From a virus (taxonomy: Duplodnaviria > Heunggongvirae > Uroviricota > Caudoviricetes): a stretch of DNA of 38,467 nucleotides. This document shows positions 735-8,675 of this stretch, in pieces. The stretch spans positions 1 to 38,467 of the IMG/VR virus record IMGVR_UViG_2850796239_000007, one strand, 5' to 3'. Made by a program: the position numbers and the translations under genes. Positions within the stretch are counted from its first letter, which is position 1, and every line of letters starts with the position of its first letter. The notes beneath the pieces were generated by a model that did not search any database, was not told where the DNA came from, and saw nothing but the letters and a program-made list of their open reading frames with translations.

Positions 735-1811
735 TCAGAGCAGTAAGTACGTTTTTTCTCTCTCATCAAGATACATTTTTGTTGTCTTCTCCGATGTGTG
801 GCCAAGTAGACGCTGAGCAAATTCTTCTCCACATATTTCTTTGTACAATCGTCCAGCCAGGCTTCTGATTTCGTGAAAAGTTGGTGGGTTTTCACTGAAC
901 AGGATACCTGTTAATTTTCTGGCTGCGACAAATTTCTTTGTCAGGCCGTCCGGGTGAATGCTGCCGTCAGGGCTGTTTTTTCTAATCCCGGCACTGATTA
1001 GATAATCCCCCCTACTTACCATGCGGCACTGTTTAACTACTGCACCAAGTCGTAAACCAGCGACAGGAAGGCTGAGTGACAGGGGGATAGCAATCATCAT
1101 TCCTGTCTTAATTTGCCTGATGTGGAGACGATCATCATAAATATCACTGAACCGCATATTCGTTATGTCTTCGCGACGTTGTCCTGTTACAAGGGCTAAG
1201 TCCATAGCTAATGGGAACCATGCCGGAAGTTGATCTGCTGCCTCCCTGATGCAGTTGTATGTCTTTAGTTTCAGCCGTTCTCTTGTAACTACTATTTTCG
1301 GTGCTCTTGTTGGCGTTACTGGATTTTGAGATATACGTCCTTCAACAATGGCTTCGCGGAACATATCAGATAACACAGAACGCATTGATCCTGCCATCGT
1401 GTTTTTCCCTCCTTCAATCCACAAATCAAGAAACTCGGCGATATGGCGAGTGGTTATTTCTGTCAGTAAAACCCCTCCTAATTTTTCTTTTATTGTCTCC
1501 AGTTGATTTACCCGAGTTTTATAAGTATTTCTGGACGCTTTTCTCCTTATAAGAATCGTTTTGTAACGTTCAATCCAGTCTGCCATAGTAAATGAGTCGA
1601 CCCCTTTAAGCTTTTCAATTAGGGCAGCAGGAGAGTAGTTTTTGTATATATAATGATTTGCTTCAATTGCCTGCGCTACTGCATCTCTTCTTGAAATTTT
1701 ACCTAGTGTAAATTCTTCTTTCGTCAGAGGGTTGCGCCAGTAATATGCTTTGTCTCTCCTTCGATATGTTAAGTTTCTAGGCAAATTGGGATCGTATTTT
1801 TTCCGCTGCAT
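735..1811 (-). CDS. int: lambda-type tyrosine integrase
   Basis: 358 aa; lambda Int-like C-terminal catalytic motifs ([15 protein letters not shown], terminal Tyr region); ATG start. Confidence 0.9.
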
Positions 1812-2747: not shown

Positions 2748-3050
2748 ATGAGCAGAAAAACCCAACGTTACTCTAAAGAGTTCAAAGCCGAAGCTGTCAG
2801 AACGGTTCTTGAAAATCAACTTTCGATCAGTGAAGGCGCTTCCCGATTATCCCTTCCTGAAGGCACTTTAGGACAATGGGTTACCGCCGCCAGAAAAGGG
2901 CTCGGTACTCCTGGTTCCCGCACGGTGGCTGAACTGGAATCTGAAATTCTGCAACTGCGTAAGGCGTTAAATGAAGCTCGCCTTGAGCGAGATATATTAA
3001 AAAAAGCAACAGCGTATTTTGCACAGGAGTCGCTGAAAAATATGCGTTAA
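2748..3050 (+). CDS. IS600 OrfA (HTH transposase subunit)
   Basis: 100 aa; A-rich slippery run near 2998-3004 for OrfAB -1 frameshift. Confidence 0.9.
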   Translation: MSRKTQRYSKEFKAEAVRTVLENQLSISEGASRLSLPEGTLGQWVTAARKGLGTPGSRTVAELESEILQLRKALNEARLERDILKKATAYFAQESLKNMR

Positions 3051-3085
3051 TCGAACAATGGCGACAACAATTTCCCATTGAAGCG

Positions 3086-3904
3086 ATGTGTCAGGTATTT
3101 GGTGTATCCAGGAGCGGTTATTACAACTGGGTACAGCATGAACCCTCAGACAGAAAACAAAGTGATGAGCGGCTAAAACTGGAGATTAAGGTGGCACATA
3201 TCCGCACTCGCGAAACATATGGAACCCGGCGGCTCCAGACGGAGCTGGCAGAGAATGGCATCATCGTTGGTCGTGACCGACTGGCACGTCTTCGTAAGGA
3301 GCTAAGGCTACGCTGTAAGCAGAAACGCAAGTTCAGAGCGACTACGAACCCGAACCACAATCTGCCAGTTGCGCCAAATCTGCTGAACCAGACGTTCGCT
3401 CCTACAGCACCAAATCAGGTCTGGGTGGCGGACCTGACGTATGTTGCCACACAGGAGGGATGGTTGTACCTCGCTGGCATCAAAGATGTTTATACGTGCG
3501 AAATTGTCGGCTACGCCATGGGAGAGCGCATGACAAAAGAGCTGACAGGTAAAGCCCTGTTTATGGCGCTCAGGAGCCAGCGCCCACCTGCCGGGCTAAT
3601 CCACCACTCTGATCGAGGTTCACAGTACTGCGCATACGATTACCGGGTCATACAGGAGCAGTTTGGTCTGAAAACATCAATGTCGCGTAAAGGTAACTGT
3701 TACGACAACGCTCCGATGGAAAGCTTCTGGGGAACGCTGAAAAATGAGAGCCTGAGCCACTATCGTTTTAATAACCGGGATGAAGCCATCTCAGTAATAC
3801 GGGAATACATTGAGATTTTCTACAATCGTCAGCGTCGTCACTCTCGTCTGGGGAATATCTCCCCGGCAGCCTTCAGGGAAAAATATCATCAGATGGCTGC
3901 TTAA
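3086..3904 (+). CDS. IS600 OrfB (DDE transposase catalytic part)
   Basis: 272 aa; -1 frame relative to OrfA. Confidence 0.9.
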   Translation: MCQVFGVSRSGYYNWVQHEPSDRKQSDERLKLEIKVAHIRTRETYGTRRLQTELAENGIIVGRDRLARLRKELRLRCKQKRKFRATTNPNHNLPVAPNLLNQTFAPTAPNQVWVADLTYVATQEGWLYLAGIKDVYTCEIVGYAMGERMTKELTGKALFMALRSQRPPAGLIHHSDRGSQYCAYDYRVIQEQFGLKTSMSRKGNCYDNAPMESFWGTLKNESLSHYRFNNRDEAISVIREYIEIFYNRQRRHSRLGNISPAAFREKYHQMAA

Positions 3905-4105: not shown

Positions 4106-4402
4106 TCAGATTGCATAAAAGAAACGAACTGATGATGCGATATGAGAGAGTTCTTTCAGTCGTTGATAACTGATACCGTATTTCTTGTCAGCCTCTTCAA
4201 TGCGAGCTGTGAGTAATGCAATTTCTTTAATGGCACATACACAACAATCAAATGTTCTCAGAACGTAACCGCCATCAATAATTACCGTGACGTTTTCTTT
4301 TTGGGAAATCTGAATGAAACTATGTAATGTATTCCCACATTTAAATTCGGCGAGAGAATCGTTAATAACATTAAGTTCAATTTCACATTCAATAATACTC
4401 AT
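4106..4402 (-). CDS. hypothetical phage protein (98 aa)
   Basis: ATG with AAGGA SD; AT-rich; in operon downstream of Rha gene. Confidence 0.5.
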   Translation of the reverse strand: MSIIECEIELNVINDSLAEFKCGNTLHSFIQISQKENVTVIIDGGYVLRTFDCCVCAIKEIALLTARIEEADKKYGISYQRLKELSHIASSVRFFYAI

Positions 4403-4476
4403 TGCTGTTTCCTTTTTTAAGGTTGAGTGAATCCCTGCCATTGCTGGCATAAATTCAGTTTCGAATATTCAGTTAA

Positions 4477-4758
4477 TTAAAGTTCGTGTGCCATCTGGTC
4501 TTTTTCGGCACAGATTTCACTACAATATTTGCGTTTCTTTTTCCTCATCATGGTTCCGTGCATGTAAATAAGTTCAGCAGTGTAAGCCTTATCAGGGCTT
4601 ACTTGTCTGTCACACAGGCCATAAGCACAGGGAATTAAATCGGGATCACCTTTCTGCTGGAGGGTTTTTTTGATTATCCATAACAATTTTTTGATTCCGG
4701 TGTGTGTTATGGTCTGCTGAGGTGCAGAGGTAAAACAATAATCAAGCATAGGGTTCAT
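4477..4758 (-). CDS. hypothetical protein with two CxxxxC pairs (possible zinc ribbon)
   Basis: 93 aa; ATG with GGAGC SD; motifs CAYGLC and CSEIC. Confidence 0.5.
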   Translation of the reverse strand: MNPMLDYCFTSAPQQTITHTGIKKLLWIIKKTLQQKGDPDLIPCAYGLCDRQVSPDKAYTAELIYMHGTMMRKKKRKYCSEICAEKDQMAHEL

Positions 4759-4774
4759 ATCCGTAGCTCCATTT

Positions 4775-5323
4775 TTATTTTAAAGAAAGTAATTGTTCCA
4801 CAGTCATATTTTTAATTGCGCCCCGGTTAACAAGAGTCCATCCCTGTTTTTCCAGATAAAACCGGAAAGTCTCCAGGGTACAGACCAGTGCGCCATCAGG
4901 AACGGTTTCGGTGAATTCGACATTGCCGAATTTGTCGAAGTGAACAACCAGAGTGCGACCATCTCCCGGAATCATCTTGTCAGCAGGTGGGGTGTTATTC
5001 TGGCGCAGTTCGGCCTCCATGCGGTCTAACTCAGCAATGTAGGCTTCCTTGAATGCGGCGGCTTTTTTGCCAGTGAAGCCCATCACCAGGAAAACGAAGC
5101 CGTTTTTGGTGATTTGGTACATTGGGAGTTTGCGCCCGGTTGAGTCGGTGTATTCGCTCGCCTCAAAATTGAGGGCAGTAAATTTATCTGAGCATTCAAT
5201 ATTTGCGATGGCACGTAACACATTGTCGTGTCGTTTGTGGAAGAACTCTGCAACCGCAACAGACGTAGTGACAGCGCGACCGTTTTCTACGGTTACACAA
5301 GGGTGAGAAAGGGTAGTAGCCAT
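4775..5323 (-). CDS. Rha-family phage regulatory protein (antirepressor-like)
   Basis: motif AVTTSVAVAEFFHKRHDNVLRAIANIEC typical of Rha domain; start set at ATG 5323 (MATTL) because the promoter of the leader module lies inside the longer track ORF. Confidence 0.75.
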   Translation of the reverse strand: MATTLSHPCVTVENGRAVTTSVAVAEFFHKRHDNVLRAIANIECSDKFTALNFEASEYTDSTGRKLPMYQITKNGFVFLVMGFTGKKAAAFKEAYIAELDRMEAELRQNNTPPADKMIPGDGRTLVVHFDKFGNVEFTETVPDGALVCTLETFRFYLEKQGWTLVNRGAIKNMTVEQLLSLK

Positions 5324-5486
5324 GATGGCAGCCTCCGCGATGAATTTGATTAACTCACCACCGGAGGTAGCAATCTCATGGGTGGTGAGACGTACAGGGT
5401 TGCTACAACCGGTCATCACGGAACCCGGCCAGTCTTGCGACTGCCCCGCACGCCCCACCATAATTTGAATGTGGCTGTGCATTACG
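5324..5486 (-). promoter_or_regulatory. structured 5' leader of Rha gene (GNRA hairpin, target site, RBS-proximal hairpin)
   Basis: paralogous to leaders at 7736..7897 and 11849..12009; hairpin CAGTC-GCAA-GACTG at 5430..5443 (minus). Confidence 0.5.
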
Positions 5487-5556
5487 CATAAAAAAACCGC
5501 CTGAGCGCGGTTATGCGCCGTGAATGACTTCGGGGTAGCAATCCCGGCACCCGTTT
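5487..5556 (-). ncRNA. candidate short terminated RNA (c4/IsrK-like) upstream of Rha gene
   Basis: promoter TTGAAA-17-TATAGT (plus coords 5563..5601), two hairpins, intrinsic terminator AACCGCGCTCAGGCGGTT + U7 (5487..5514). Confidence 0.4.
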
Positions 5557-6012
5557 TATGAGGTGCAGGTGCACTATAATTCCACCCGTTCTGGTTTTCA
5601 ATAGCTACATTCAACATTTTCTCTTTCCTTTCATCACCGAAGTGAACTTTGTTGATGCGGTGCCTGGTGCCTCCAGGTGACGTTAACCAGTTAACAATTA
5701 ACGCCGGAATAAGGGATTTTCCTTACTGTTTTAACTGTTCCGCGTGCGCTGAGCCGCATTCACCGCATCACAAAATTCACTTTAAAAAGGGCGGACATCA
5801 GCCAGCAATTAAACCGATGCCGCCAACTGGTACTTCACACAGCAATGTCGTTATTTACAACCGGAGGCGCACTCCCACCATTTAAATTTAACAGACAAGA
5901 CCGACTCTTTATGGATACCGGAAATGCGCCTTCGTGTTGTGCCCGGTTTTATTTCACCACCTCCGGGCTTTGGTGGTATCTTTACTGAAGTTCTCGCACA
6001 ACCAGTAAGGAA

Positions 6013-6102
6013 ATGAATATGCCAACGTATCTCGCCAGAGTAGAACTATATAATGCTGAGCCAGAGGATTACGAAGGGCTTCATAAATATATGCTCTCAC
6101 TA
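6013..6102 (+). pseudogene. 5' part of small gene interrupted by IS5-family element
   Basis: joins in frame with 7021..7170 when IS and one TA copy are removed (80-aa ORF). Confidence 0.45.
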
Positions 6103-6162
6103 GGCTGTGTCCCTTAATCATCTGAGCTATAGTAACTGTCTGTTTACACAACATATTGAACT

Positions 6163-6612
6163 ATGGCTCGCTACGACCTTCCCGATGAGGCATGGACCAT
6201 CATCAAGCCCCTGTTACCTCCTGAACCCGCCACACCACGGGCCGGACGCCCATGGGCTGAGCACCGTAAAATCATCAATGGCATGTTCTGGGTGTTATGT
6301 TCCGGTGCACCATGGCGCGATTTACCCGAACGATATGGGTCATGGAAAACTGTTTATAACCGCTTTAACCGATGGTCAAAGTCAGGCGTGATTAATATTA
6401 TTTTCAACAGGTTGCTTTCGCTACTTGATGCAAACGGCTTTATTGACTGGTCTGCCACCGCGCTGGATGGCAGTAATATCCGGGCGCTGAAATGTGCCGC
6501 CGGTGCTCAAAAAAACATCCCGATATCGACGGAGATAATGGGCTGGGTCGCTCTCGCGGCGGTTTTGGCACCAAAATCCATCTGGCAACAGACGGAAGTG
6601 GCCTCCCGTTAA
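6163..6612 (+). CDS. IS5-family transposase OrfA
   Basis: 149 aa, MARYDLPDEAWTIIKPLLPP...; contains A AAA AAC slippery heptamer at about 6511..6517. Confidence 0.8.
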   Translation: MARYDLPDEAWTIIKPLLPPEPATPRAGRPWAEHRKIINGMFWVLCSGAPWRDLPERYGSWKTVYNRFNRWSKSGVINIIFNRLLSLLDANGFIDWSATALDGSNIRALKCAAGAQKNIPISTEIMGWVALAAVLAPKSIWQQTEVASR

Positions 6613-7007
6613 ATATCGTGCTAAGCCCCGGACAAGCTCATGAAAGCCAGTTCGCGCAACGACTTCTGGACGGGATTGGCGTTCAGCGTCAGAACGGCAG
6701 CATGAAACGCCGTGGACATGCGGTACTGGCTGATAAAGCGTATTCAGGGCGCGCATTGCGCAACGAGCTGAAAAATAACGGTATAAAGGCAGTAATCCCC
6801 CGAAAGTCAAATGAGAAAATGGCATCGGATGGACGTGCACAGCTTGATCGTGATGCGTACCGCAATCGTAATGTCGTTGAACGGTGCTTTGGGCGGCTGA
6901 AAGAATATCGCCGCATCGCCACGCGTTACGACAAAACGGCGAGAAATTACCTGGCGATGGTGAAACTGGGCTGCATCCGACTCTTTTATCAACGCTTACG
7001 TAATTAA
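6492..7007 (+). CDS. IS5-family transposase OrfB (DDE domain), -1 frame
   Basis: 171 aa in -1 frame overlapping OrfA. Confidence 0.8.
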   Translation: MCRRCSKKHPDIDGDNGLGRSRGGFGTKIHLATDGSGLPLNIVLSPGQAHESQFAQRLLDGIGVQRQNGSMKRRGHAVLADKAYSGRALRNELKNNGIKAVIPRKSNEKMASDGRAQLDRDAYRNRNVVERCFGRLKEYRRIATRYDKTARNYLAMVKLGCIRLFYQRLRN

Positions 7008-7020
7008 GGGACACAGCCTA

Positions 7021-7170
7021 GCATCCAGTAATCAGGTTAGCGAATTAACAATGTGGGTTAAACGACTGGTCAGTCAACTGAAAAAAGCTAAGCCTGACTG
7101 CAAATTACCGGAGAAGGCGATGGATTACCTGAAGCGAAATGGACTGATAAGCGTGGAGGATGTTTTACGA
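7021..7170 (+). pseudogene. 3' part of small gene interrupted by IS5-family copy 1
   Basis: in-frame continuation of 6013..6102. Confidence 0.45.
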
Positions 7171-7570: not shown

Positions 7571-7657
7571 GTTAAATCCTTCGTTGTTGGGGAATATTGT
7601 TAGTTTAGCCTGTAGTGGCTGTTGACGACAACGTTAATCCGGGGCTATATTCCTCAC

Positions 7658-7735
7658 GCGCCAGCAAAATCTGGCGTCGGGATTGGCGTCCCGGATGTTT
7701 ACGGAGCGATATGAGACGCGTCCGCGTCTTTTTTC
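7658..7735 (+). ncRNA. candidate short terminated RNA (c4/IsrK-like), copy upstream of ORF6N gene 1
   Basis: promoter TTGACG-18-TATATT (7622..7651); hairpins at 7659..7676 and 7677..7692; terminator 7714..7735. Confidence 0.4.
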
Positions 7736-7897
7736 ATATCGTTTGCACAGTCACATTCGCGATTTATGGCGGGCTGTGTGGGGGAGCCGAAAGGCTCGCC
7801 GGTTTCCGTACCCGGTTACGCCAACCCTGCACAGTTCGCCACCAGTTCGATTGGCGTCGTCGGTGGCGATAATTTCCAAATGTACGGAGTTATCGTT
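7736..7897 (+). promoter_or_regulatory. structured leader of ORF6N gene 1
   Basis: GNRA hairpin GAGCC-GAAA-GGCTC 7784..7797; ACGCCAAC site 7818..7825; hairpin TCGCCACC/GGTGGCGA 7846..7869. Confidence 0.5.
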
Positions 7898-8446
7898 ATG
7901 ACCACTCAAATCTCTGTTGAAACTCTCTCCCCGATCGCCCATAACCAGATACCTGTTATTACCACTGAACTTTTGGCGCAGTTGTACGGCACAGAAGCGA
8001 TTCGCATTCAGCAAAATCACGCCAGAAACGCTGAACGTTTTATTGAAGGTAAGCATTTTTATAAGTTAGTGGGCGATGAGCTTAGAGGTATGAAGCACAG
8101 ACTATCTTTAAGCGAGTCTGTGAAAATTGCCCGTAACGTTCGCTCCCTCATTCTCTGGACAGAACGCGGAGCAGCACGTCACGCCAAAATGCTCGAAACC
8201 GATCAGGCGTGGGAAGTATTCGAAAAATTGGAAGACTGCTACTTCAACCAGTACGAGAAAGATCGGGCTACGGGGAAAATGAACATCGATATTCACCTGG
8301 CGATCCGTGATGATAAAACTGCCTTCATCCGAAGTTATGCGCCTGGTCAGCTGGTGACGGTTGAAGAAGCCCTGATGTTGCTTAAATCGCGCGGATGGCT
8401 GGTAATGCCGCGAGATGAACTTGCCGGAAAATTAATGGAGCTTTAA
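7898..8446 (+). CDS. antirepressor-family protein, ORF6N-type N-terminal domain
   Basis: 182 aa from ATG 7898 (MTTQISVETL); paralog of 12010..12567; C-terminal motif shared with Rha protein. Confidence 0.6.
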   Translation: MTTQISVETLSPIAHNQIPVITTELLAQLYGTEAIRIQQNHARNAERFIEGKHFYKLVGDELRGMKHRLSLSESVKIARNVRSLILWTERGAARHAKMLETDQAWEVFEKLEDCYFNQYEKDRATGKMNIDIHLAIRDDKTAFIRSYAPGQLVTVEEALMLLKSRGWLVMPRDELAGKLMEL

Positions 8447-8460
8447 CTGGTTAAATTAGC

Positions 8461-8486
8461 CCCGATATGGGAATTCCCATATCGGG
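8461..8486. repeat. 26-bp perfect palindrome CCCGATATGGGAATTCCCATATCGGG
   Basis: 15 bp downstream of ORF6N gene 1 stop; not followed by a U-run. Confidence 0.5.
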
Positions 8487-8675
8487 AGAACATTACCACC
8501 GGGGATAAAATGATTTGCGGTGAAAGGGAAGTTAAGTAGAATTGCTGCGGGTGCTTGAGGCTATCTGTCTCAGGCATGAACACCAAAAGGCAGATGAGAA
8601 GCCCCAGTTAACATTACGCGTCCTGCAAGACGCTTAACATTAATCTGAGGCCAATTTCATGCTAGGCTGTGTCCC

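Follow-up and report, generated by a model that had tools for sequence, protein, structure and literature searches.

Organization of the module upstream of the Rha gene

The module described here lies on the minus strand of a 38,467-nucleotide (nt) stretch of viral DNA (Caudoviricetes; IMG/VR record IMGVR_UViG_2850796239_000007; hereafter the window), immediately ahead of a gene encoding a Rha-family regulator. Sequence inspection of positions 5321-5601 revealed, in the direction of transcription, a sigma-70-like promoter and a short RNA that ends at a terminator; a folded leader RNA comes next, and the ribosome-binding region of the Rha gene follows. This module was designated M3, and two related modules of the same window were designated M1 and M2. 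A first-pass annotation of the window had described the region as a third, divergent copy of one module, and this description held, the same Rfam families being found in M3 as in M1 and M2 and the three modules being colinear from the promoter to the start codon. M3 represents, in intact form, a phage RNA switch that is already known, made up of an IsrK short RNA and a C4 antisense RNA and placed before a Rha-type gene; this copy was previously unannotated and has its own address.

The predicted promoter (5573-5601, minus strand) consists of a -35 element TTGAAA (5601-5596) and a -10 element TATAGT (5578-5573) separated by a spacer of 17 nt, as the first-pass annotation had proposed. In a consensus scan, it matched the consensus at 10 of 12 positions, and two promoter-like sites were found in the 600-nt scan compared with 0.5 expected. 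The promoter is colinear with the TTGAC.../TATATT promoters of M1, M2 and 50 related loci. As predicted from the sequence, transcription is likely to start at about 5566, which is 7 nt past the -10 box and corresponds to position 1 of the Rfam isrK model; the earlier estimate of a start near 5556 was about 10 nt off.

The IsrK-like short RNA (5488-5566, minus strand) was identified by Rfam family RF01394, the terminator scan and the predicted fold. Its two hairpins were predicted at 5566-5547 and 5546-5531, and the loop of the second is the site b1, AUUGCUAC, at 5542-5535; the first-pass annotation had recognized this loop but had placed it one nucleotide away, at 5536-5543. The site a1, UCAUUCACGG (5527-5518), is found just 3' of the b1 hairpin and is followed directly by a predicted intrinsic terminator, with a stem at 5512-5495 and a U-tract reaching to 5488. 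A terminator had been noticed here before, and only its limits (given as 5487-5514) had to be corrected.

A C4-type antisense RNA occupies positions 5378-5465 of the same strand, according to Rfam family RF01695 and the minimum free energy (MFE) fold. Its outer stem of 17 bp encloses a GNRA hairpin, CAGUC-GCAA-GACUG, at 5443-5430, the hairpin previously read in the DNA as CAGTC-GCAA-GACTG. The second hairpin of C4 carries the site a', GUUCCGUGAUGA, as its 12-nt loop (5424-5413), and the site b', UGUAGCAAC (5407-5399), is single-stranded and has the core GUAGC. The outer stem is directly followed at its 3' side by CCA. The sequence GUAGCAAC, which the first-pass annotation had called the leader site, was located at 5406-5399; it is b' of this structured antisense RNA and not a passive target, and what had been called the short-RNA loop and the sense copy are b1 and b2, respectively.

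Site b2, GAUUGCUAC (5375-5367), is identical to b1 and is the sense copy that had been noted near the ribosome-binding site (RBS). After b2, an anti-Shine-Dalgarno sequence CCUCC (5367-5363) shuts the Shine-Dalgarno (SD) sequence in a local hairpin. The translation-initiation region of the Rha gene (5321-5343, minus strand) comprises the site a2, UCAUCGCGGAGG (5343-5332), which includes the SD sequence GGAGG (5336-5332), and, after a spacer of 8 nt, the AUG start codon (5323-5321) that opens an open reading frame (ORF) of 182 amino acids (aa) ending at 4775. The sites a1, a' and a2 form a second recognition site that was absent from the first-pass annotation, which also co-varies and which covers the SD sequence.

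RNA family membership and predicted folds

The whole window was scanned with Rfam at the gathering thresholds. The isrK family (RF01394) matched positions 5566-5490 of the minus strand with 64.8 bits (cut-off 50), and the C4 family (RF01695) matched positions 5465-5378 of the same strand with 79.0 bits (cut-off 45), both over the entire model (positions 1-77 of 77 and 1-87 of 87, respectively). As the family requires, the isrK region has two hairpins on its 5' side and an intrinsic terminator after them, and both families exceeded their curated cut-offs in all three modules of the window. The family c4-a1b1 (RF03163) passed in M1 and M2 (52.2 and 52.9 bits) and stayed below its cut-off in M3 (20.6 vs. 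46.7 bits), where it overlaps the isrK match and where the a1/b1 complementarity is still present.

The isolated 88-nt C4 RNA had an MFE of -44.5 kcal/mol, and its fold was identical to the Rfam structure, with the outer stem, the tetraloop hairpin, the a'-loop hairpin and a single-stranded b'. When the unprocessed M3 leader (257 nt) was folded, an MFE of -109.4 kcal/mol (z = -4.7) was obtained; in this structure, a1b1 pairs with a'b' in cis over 24 bp, and the SD sequence and the AUG are enclosed in a local hairpin. The hairpin that closes the SD sequence reached -30.6 kcal/mol (z = -4.0). The MFE structure of the M2 leader has the same cis helix between a1b1 and a'b', and that of M1 keeps the C4 fold. 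The fold modeled for the M3 leader corresponds to the inactive ‘structure A’ of the study of the Gifsy-1 locus, which is compared below.

The significance of the module follows from the Rfam matches above curated cut-offs, from the colinear architecture of the three modules and from the covariation over 53 modules, and not from a short match: the 8-mer GTAGCAAC occurs twice in the window compared with about one occurrence expected, and the 8-mer match alone is not significant.

Pairing of the b and a sites

The 7-bp complementarity between the loop and its partner that had been reported from the first reading (UUGCUAC/GUAGCAA) is exact in M3 and extends to 10 bp (GGG/CCC, with one bulged A). 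Duplex energies were computed for the accessible elements only; duplexes between whole C4 RNAs and their targets were dropped, being long, unrealistic and without discrimination between the modules. The cognate b1:b' duplex of M3 reached -17.0 kcal/mol, compared with -8.7 kcal/mol when b1 of the other modules was used. For b2, the cognate duplex gave -11.1 kcal/mol and the non-cognate ones -3.9 and -5.8 kcal/mol. The a' site of M3 is complementary both to a1 and to the SD-containing a2, and the a':a2 duplex amounted to -20.4 kcal/mol, compared with -8.2 and -10.3 kcal/mol for the a2 regions of M1 and M2.

The address of M3 thus reads GCUAC/GUAGC for b and UCAU(U)CACGG/CCGUGAUGA for a. M1 carries GGCGU/ACGCC as b and UACGGAG/UUUCCGUAC as a, and M2 has the same b allele with a different a site, AUCGAAACG/AUGUUUCGA. 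Because its address differs from those of M1 and M2, the M3 switch should be blind to theirs. The co-resident modules M1 (7645-7906) and M2 (11760-12018), with the same b and a different a, are only half insulated from each other, with possible cross-talk.

Covariation across related modules

Related modules were collected by two exact-pattern scans of viral contigs. These yielded 188 module copies, of which 92 were distinct and 59 were parsed, and the resulting alignment contains 53 distinct modules. The first pattern, with 5-9 nt between two anchors, missed the M3-type modules, and these were recovered by the second pattern (1-4 nt). About one third of the unique modules, which were truncated, recombined or more divergent, fell outside the parsing pattern and were left out, so the allele counts given here are lower bounds.

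Over the 53 distinct modules, b1:b' was paired in 99.4% of the cells and b':b2 in 99.2%. Every variable b position (5/5) had changed on both sides, for b1:b' and b':b2 alike, which bears out the earlier observation that the loop and its partner had changed in a compensatory way. This kind of change is the known mechanism of immunity specificity, in a system that has already been described. None of 500 shuffles reached the observed b covariation score, and when the partner columns were slid by 1-3 positions, b pairing fell to 10%-52%; chance complementarity is ruled out by these controls.

Seven b' cores were found (ACGCC, GUGCU, GUUCC, GUCUC, GUAGC, GUAUC and CGGCC). The first six, which were tabulated, each match both b1 and b2, and CGGCC lies outside that table. 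All unpaired b cells stem from a single hybrid locus (L180). At this locus (5094-5418), a natural hybrid, b1 (AGCAC) mismatches b' (GUAGC) and b2 carries an insertion of 1 nt; it may represent a recombinant or defective switch.

Eleven a' alleles were distinguished, for which the cognate a1 was the best partner in 11/11 cases and the cognate a2 in 9/11, and a2 overlaps or abuts the SD sequence in every allele. Alleles of a and b were combined in many different ways. Given the three-way covariation, a'b' must be capable of pairing with the upstream copies as well as with the downstream ones. The natural allele series is strong comparative proof of one shared code, read alike by the IsrK sites, the C4 sites and the RBS sites. 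The family membership of M3, its anatomy, its complementarity and its covariation are established by the present analysis.

Start of the Rha gene and the ‘Ash’ extension

The 182-aa protein encoded downstream of the module (4775-5323, minus strand) is an antirepressor-like regulator of the Rha family with an N-terminal Rha domain: TIGR02681 matched residues 8-109 with 112.4 bits (cut-off 45.95), and PF09669 matched as well. Residues 106-170 match phrog_2379, the family of the M1 and M2 proteins, and the downstream proteins of all three modules match antirepressor PHROG families. The start at 5323, which the first-pass annotation had favored, is supported by an ATG column that is invariant in 53/53 modules whatever gene comes next, by the SD sequence GGAGG 8 nt upstream, by the Rha domain beginning at residue 8, and by the finding that the extension upstream of it has no coding signature and overlies two RNA families.

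This extension comprises 98 codons (5324-5617, minus strand) of a longer ORF (4775-5617), overlies the promoter, IsrK, the terminator and C4, and is most likely not coding but translated RNA-gene DNA. In a codon-position test on a protein-guided codon alignment, the variable columns at the three codon positions numbered 21/18/23 in the extension vs. 84/62/123 in the Rha coding sequence (CDS), so the third-position bias is missing from the extension. The ratio of synonymous to non-synonymous changes was 57:132 in the extension, a non-synonymous excess, vs. 317:444 in the Rha CDS. The missing codon-position bias, the non-synonymous excess, the compensation at the RNA level and the promoter and terminator contained in it all speak against the stretch being a translated sequence under selection at the amino acid level.

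The Pfam family PF10554 (Phage_ASH) matches residues 14-104 of the long ORF with 59.5-63.6 bits (cut-off 26). In P4 (locus L190), PF10554 matches the obsolete ‘cI’ ORF over the CI RNA (8168-8584). One paper's statement that P4 epsilon is the source of the Ash match was rejected, since epsilon matches PF25738 and not PF10554. When the translated extension was used in a tblastn search, the RNA-immunity loci of N15 (cA), SfV, D6 and phiKO2 were matched. Moreover, the frame of the extension is broken in most non-Rha modules, and the ‘Ash domain’ is fused to differing, unrelated proteins in six PHROG families. PF10554 appears to model the translation of an IsrK/C4 (P4 CI) RNA locus and not a protein; in the literature it serves to mark epsilon in P4-like satellites or is described for Shiga toxin (Stx) phages as a ‘Rha/Ash domain’.

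RefSeq, through the Prokaryotic Genome Annotation Pipeline (PGAP), annotates the long CDS of 843 nt in close relatives; this annotation and the Pfam match contradict the 5323 start, on weak grounds. In the E. coli loci L001 (3376-4218) and L002 (3366-4214), PGAP names the product ‘Rha family phage regulatory protein’ and gives it in the long form, the N-terminus being longer by about 98 codons, and no non-coding RNA is annotated there; phage records likewise carry the long form, under various product names.

An AUG at the 5' foot of C4 was also invariant in 53/53 modules (5459-5461 in M3, 7766-7768 in M1 and 11879-11881 in M2). The ORF that starts from it has 8-35 codons in most modules, and its amino acid sequence is not conserved. 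In 18 of the 53 modules, this leader ORF is fused in frame with the main gene. The fusion is present in M3, M1 and all Rha-type copies.

Comparison with known systems

The immI operon of phages P1 and P7, reportedly described by Citron and Schuster in 1990, consists of the c4 antisense RNA, icd and ant. The c4 RNA is processed to about 77 nt by ribonuclease P (RNase P) and represses antirepressor synthesis in trans. By acting at the RBS, it prevents translation of ant, and heteroimmunity is based on it (PMC12197685, PMC6906374; reviews). M3 resembles immI in that a C4-fold RNA derives from the leader of the operon under its control, in that a' and b' each have upstream copies (a1, b1) and copies at the RBS (a2, b2), and in that compensatory substitutions shift the specificity, seen as heteroimmunity in P1/P7. 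The gene controlled in immI encodes an antirepressor, and the M3 gene belongs to the Rha family and appears antirepressor-like from its sequence. Unlike immI, M3 lies in a lambdoid, Rac-like chromosomal prophage remnant, its a1/b1 part is a separately terminated short RNA, it has no icd-like gene, and the RBS covered is that of the Rha-domain gene itself. The a and b sequences also differ, and processing and repression would apply to M3 by analogy only.

Binding of Hfq by the short RNA, and its activation in trans of read-through mRNA translation, are known only for the Salmonella prophage Gifsy-1 (PMC4825925). As reported for the Gifsy-1 IsrK/STnc1160/orf45/anrP locus by Hershko-Shalev et al. 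2016 (PMC4825925), IsrK in trans lifts antirepressor translation more than 100-fold, and STnc1160, a stable RNA of the C4 region, comes from the same promoter as IsrK. Both RNAs are highly expressed in lysogens. When the transcription start was set 2 nt before GCCAGC, every numbered nucleotide of the IsrK paper fitted: G28 and G31 fall in the b1 core GGCGU, C159 and C162 fall in b' ACGCC, and the first orf45 AUG (nt 107) is the C4-foot AUG. The published compensatory mutants, G28A/C162U and G31A/C159U (PMC4825925), therefore sit in b1/b', and the b1:b' helix (helix b-I) is proven for the b allele carried by M1 and M2.

Gifsy-1 and the modules of the window have the same order of promoter, short RNA, terminator, C4 region and antirepressor gene, and their sequences can be aligned; like M2, Gifsy-1 has a Q-antiterminator gene upstream and a transfer RNA (tRNA) gene downstream. 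M3 differs from Gifsy-1 in its b core (GCUAC vs. GGCGU) and its a site, in its position in the early-left region of a Rac-like element and not after Q, and in the protein that follows, which has a Rha domain and is not of the ORF6N type. Furthermore, the leader ORF of M3 is fused in frame with the gene, whereas that of Gifsy-1 ends before it.

P4 likewise has Rfam C4 (8507-8420) and isrK (8692-8615) matches, and the cA locus of N15 is matched by the translated M3 region. In P4 (CI RNA, seqA/seqB/seqC) and N15 (CA RNA/antC), as would be the case in M3, a processed leader RNA pairs with sites flanking itself. For these phages, the described outcome is that transcription of replication or antirepressor operons terminates prematurely; in contrast, a2 of M3 overlaps the SD sequence, which suggests translational control.

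Proposed mechanism and alternative explanations

Taken together, M3 is probably a self-contained RNA immunity module of the P1/P7 immI, P4 CI, N15 CA and Gifsy-1 IsrK kind that controls a Rha-type antirepressor-like protein. How the RNA is processed, whether regulation is positive or negative, and the part that the Rha protein plays as an antirepressor would all follow the homologues. In the proposed mechanism, a single constitutive promoter (about 5601-5573) would yield two transcripts. Most transcripts would end at the terminator (5512-5488), giving an IsrK-like RNA with a length of about 78 nt on which b1 and a1 are exposed, and read-through would pass C4 (5465-5378), with a' and b' displayed, and then the Rha leader with b2 and a2 at the RBS. 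C4 would probably be freed by RNase P, as in P1/P7; its b' and a' could then pair with b2 and a2, covering the SD sequence already shut by the local hairpin, so that Rha would be switched off in cis and in trans. The IsrK-like RNA, which has the same sites as the target, would compete for C4 both in cis, in the unprocessed leader, and in trans, and would act as a decoy or target mimic and as an activator, as shown for IsrK. The address of such a switch would consist of the 5-nt b core and an a site of 8-12 nt.

Several points weigh against this interpretation. The promoter and terminator of M3 are predictions from consensus matches only, and the context upstream of M3 is cut by an insertion sequence (IS) element at 6100. 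In 20/20 M3-like copies, the frame over the RNA region has no interruption and is fused to Rha, which leaves room for translation through the RNA region. In the modeled fold, the local hairpin alone would already close the SD sequence, so that C4 pairing may or may not add to repression. M1 and M2 have a common b allele, so b alone cannot insulate fully. In addition, the homologous RNA in P4 and N15 is held to act by premature termination and not by an RBS block. Accounts of the known systems also differ on the sign of regulation, C4 being a repressor in P1/P7 and the short RNA an activator in Gifsy-1, and over-expression of the STnc1160/C4 region did not relieve IsrK toxicity in Gifsy-1 (PMC4825925).

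Two alternatives keep the RNA module but assign it another mode of action. Were activation the only function, the C4-like segment would be merely an inactive leader fold, and the short RNA would open the leader ORF at AUG 5461, from which ribosomes would run into Rha (the fused product here having 228 aa). This model has experimental support in Gifsy-1 (PMC4825925); its orf45 start, AUG107, is the C4-foot AUG that is invariant in the 53 modules, the MFE structures of the M3 and M2 leaders form the cis a1b1:a'b' helix, the local hairpin over the SD sequence and AUG of Rha is one that an elongating ribosome would open, and the leader ORF is fused in frame in 18/53 modules. However, it leaves unexplained why b2 and a2 co-vary with b' and a', and why the complete C4 fold and the 3' CCA are present, given that the processed RNA is the repressor in P1/P7; moreover, the leader ORF has 8-35 codons of unconserved amino acid sequence in other modules, and no SD sequence is visible before AUG 5461. 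We consider this explanation rather unlikely. Control by termination, as described for P4 CI and N15 CA, would instead have the C4-like RNA pair with a1b1 and a2b2 on the nascent transcript and stop transcription early. The same pair of Rfam families in P4, the tblastn matches of the translated M3 region to the N15 cA and phiKO2 loci, the termination caused by P4 CI RNA through pairing with seqA and seqC (summarized in PMC4825925) and the intrinsic terminator directly after a1 are consistent with it. Nevertheless, a2 lies over the SD sequence in every allele, which fits an RBS block to which any polarity would be secondary, and the terminator scan found no terminator-like site between C4 and the Rha start; termination control is accordingly judged improbable for M3.

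A third explanation would reverse the order of importance, the long ORF (4775-5617) being a genuine two-domain ‘Ash-Rha’ protein of 280 aa and the RNA-family matches secondary. The PF10554 score (63.6 bits against a cut-off of 26), the 843-nt CDS annotated by PGAP, the frame that is open in all M3-like copies and a purine-rich stretch ahead of ATG 5617 speak for such a protein. On the other hand, ATG 5617 lies upstream of the module's own promoter, an intrinsic terminator falls inside the ‘domain’, and the substitutions are compensatory at the RNA level and free of the codon-position bias and of the synonymous share seen in the Rha CDS. Outside M3, the frame is broken in most non-Rha modules, the ‘domain’ stands on unrelated proteins in six PHROG families, and in P4 it corresponds to the obsolete ‘cI’ ORF over the CI RNA and not to epsilon. 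The protein reading is therefore considered very improbable.

Modules M1 and M2 and the surrounding window

Both other modules lie on the plus strand. M1 (7645-8446) comprises isrK (7658-7734), C4 (7762-7846) and a gene for an ORF6N-type antirepressor (7898-8446). M2 (11760-12567) comprises isrK (11773-11847), C4 (11874-11958) and likewise an ORF6N-type antirepressor gene (12010-12567). M2 directly follows a Q-like antiterminator gene (11066-11740), a gene order that corresponds to the Gifsy-1 isrK locus. Just downstream of the M2 antirepressor gene, four tRNA genes were found in a row (12775-13082); a tRNA gene also follows anrP in Gifsy-1.

The window is an IS-rich prophage cluster. Two IS copies of 925 bp (IS4/IS5-type transposase, DUF4096), at 6100-7024 and 8659-9583, are 100% identical and inverted. 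M1 and its antirepressor gene lie between them on a 1634-bp segment that could be invertible or mobile as a unit, and the region upstream of M3 is interrupted by the left copy. Further IS-like transposase ORFs were found at 2748-3904, 13784-14980 and 23483-24712, namely an orfA/orfB pair of the IS3 family and two ORFs of about 400 aa that resemble each other. The many IS copies may point to Shigella or an IS-rich E. coli. The chromosomal small RNA (sRNA) pair SraC/RyeA and SdsR/RyeB (463-607) lies at the left end of the window, beside a lambda-type integrase gene (735-1811, minus strand), and the RalA antitoxin sRNA of a type I toxin-antitoxin system (RalR/RalA) such as that of the Rac prophage was found at 2169-2347. 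When positions 4400-6100 were compared with complete E. coli genomes, no full-length match above 98% identity was obtained, the best being 97.7% over 84% of the query.

Biological significance

For the window, the analysis identifies the three look-alike regions as RNA immunity modules of a known type and fixes 5323 as the Rha start. The allele series, with its 7 b' cores and 11 a alleles, links two separate literatures, those of the P1/P7 c4 repressor and of the Gifsy-1 IsrK activator. An annotation problem also comes to light, in that pipelines call a 98-codon N-terminal extension over RNA genes, and it is apparently on such translations that the Pfam ‘Ash’ family was built. Two results are useful as by-products, namely the matrix of alleles and the evidence that translated RNA makes up a Pfam family and many N-termini in databases.

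More tentatively, and with a somewhat greater chance of being wrong than right, the a and b sites may be proposed to work in combination as the two parts of an address, with at least 7 b cores and 11 or more a alleles that are freely reassorted among enterobacterial prophages. Such an address would keep co-resident antirepressor switches separate, and partial sharing, as between M1 and M2, would couple some of them deliberately. The IsrK-type RNA might then be a decoy for C4-type repressors in general, and this would bring the P1/P7 and Gifsy-1 models together. Translation of RNA loci of this type might also be the origin of PF10554 ‘Ash’, of several PHROG families and of N-termini in thousands of RefSeq ‘Rha family’ entries. 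Since the induction of prophages, Stx phages included, is controlled by antirepressor switches of this type, knowing which prophages have a common address predicts which of them can cross-induce.

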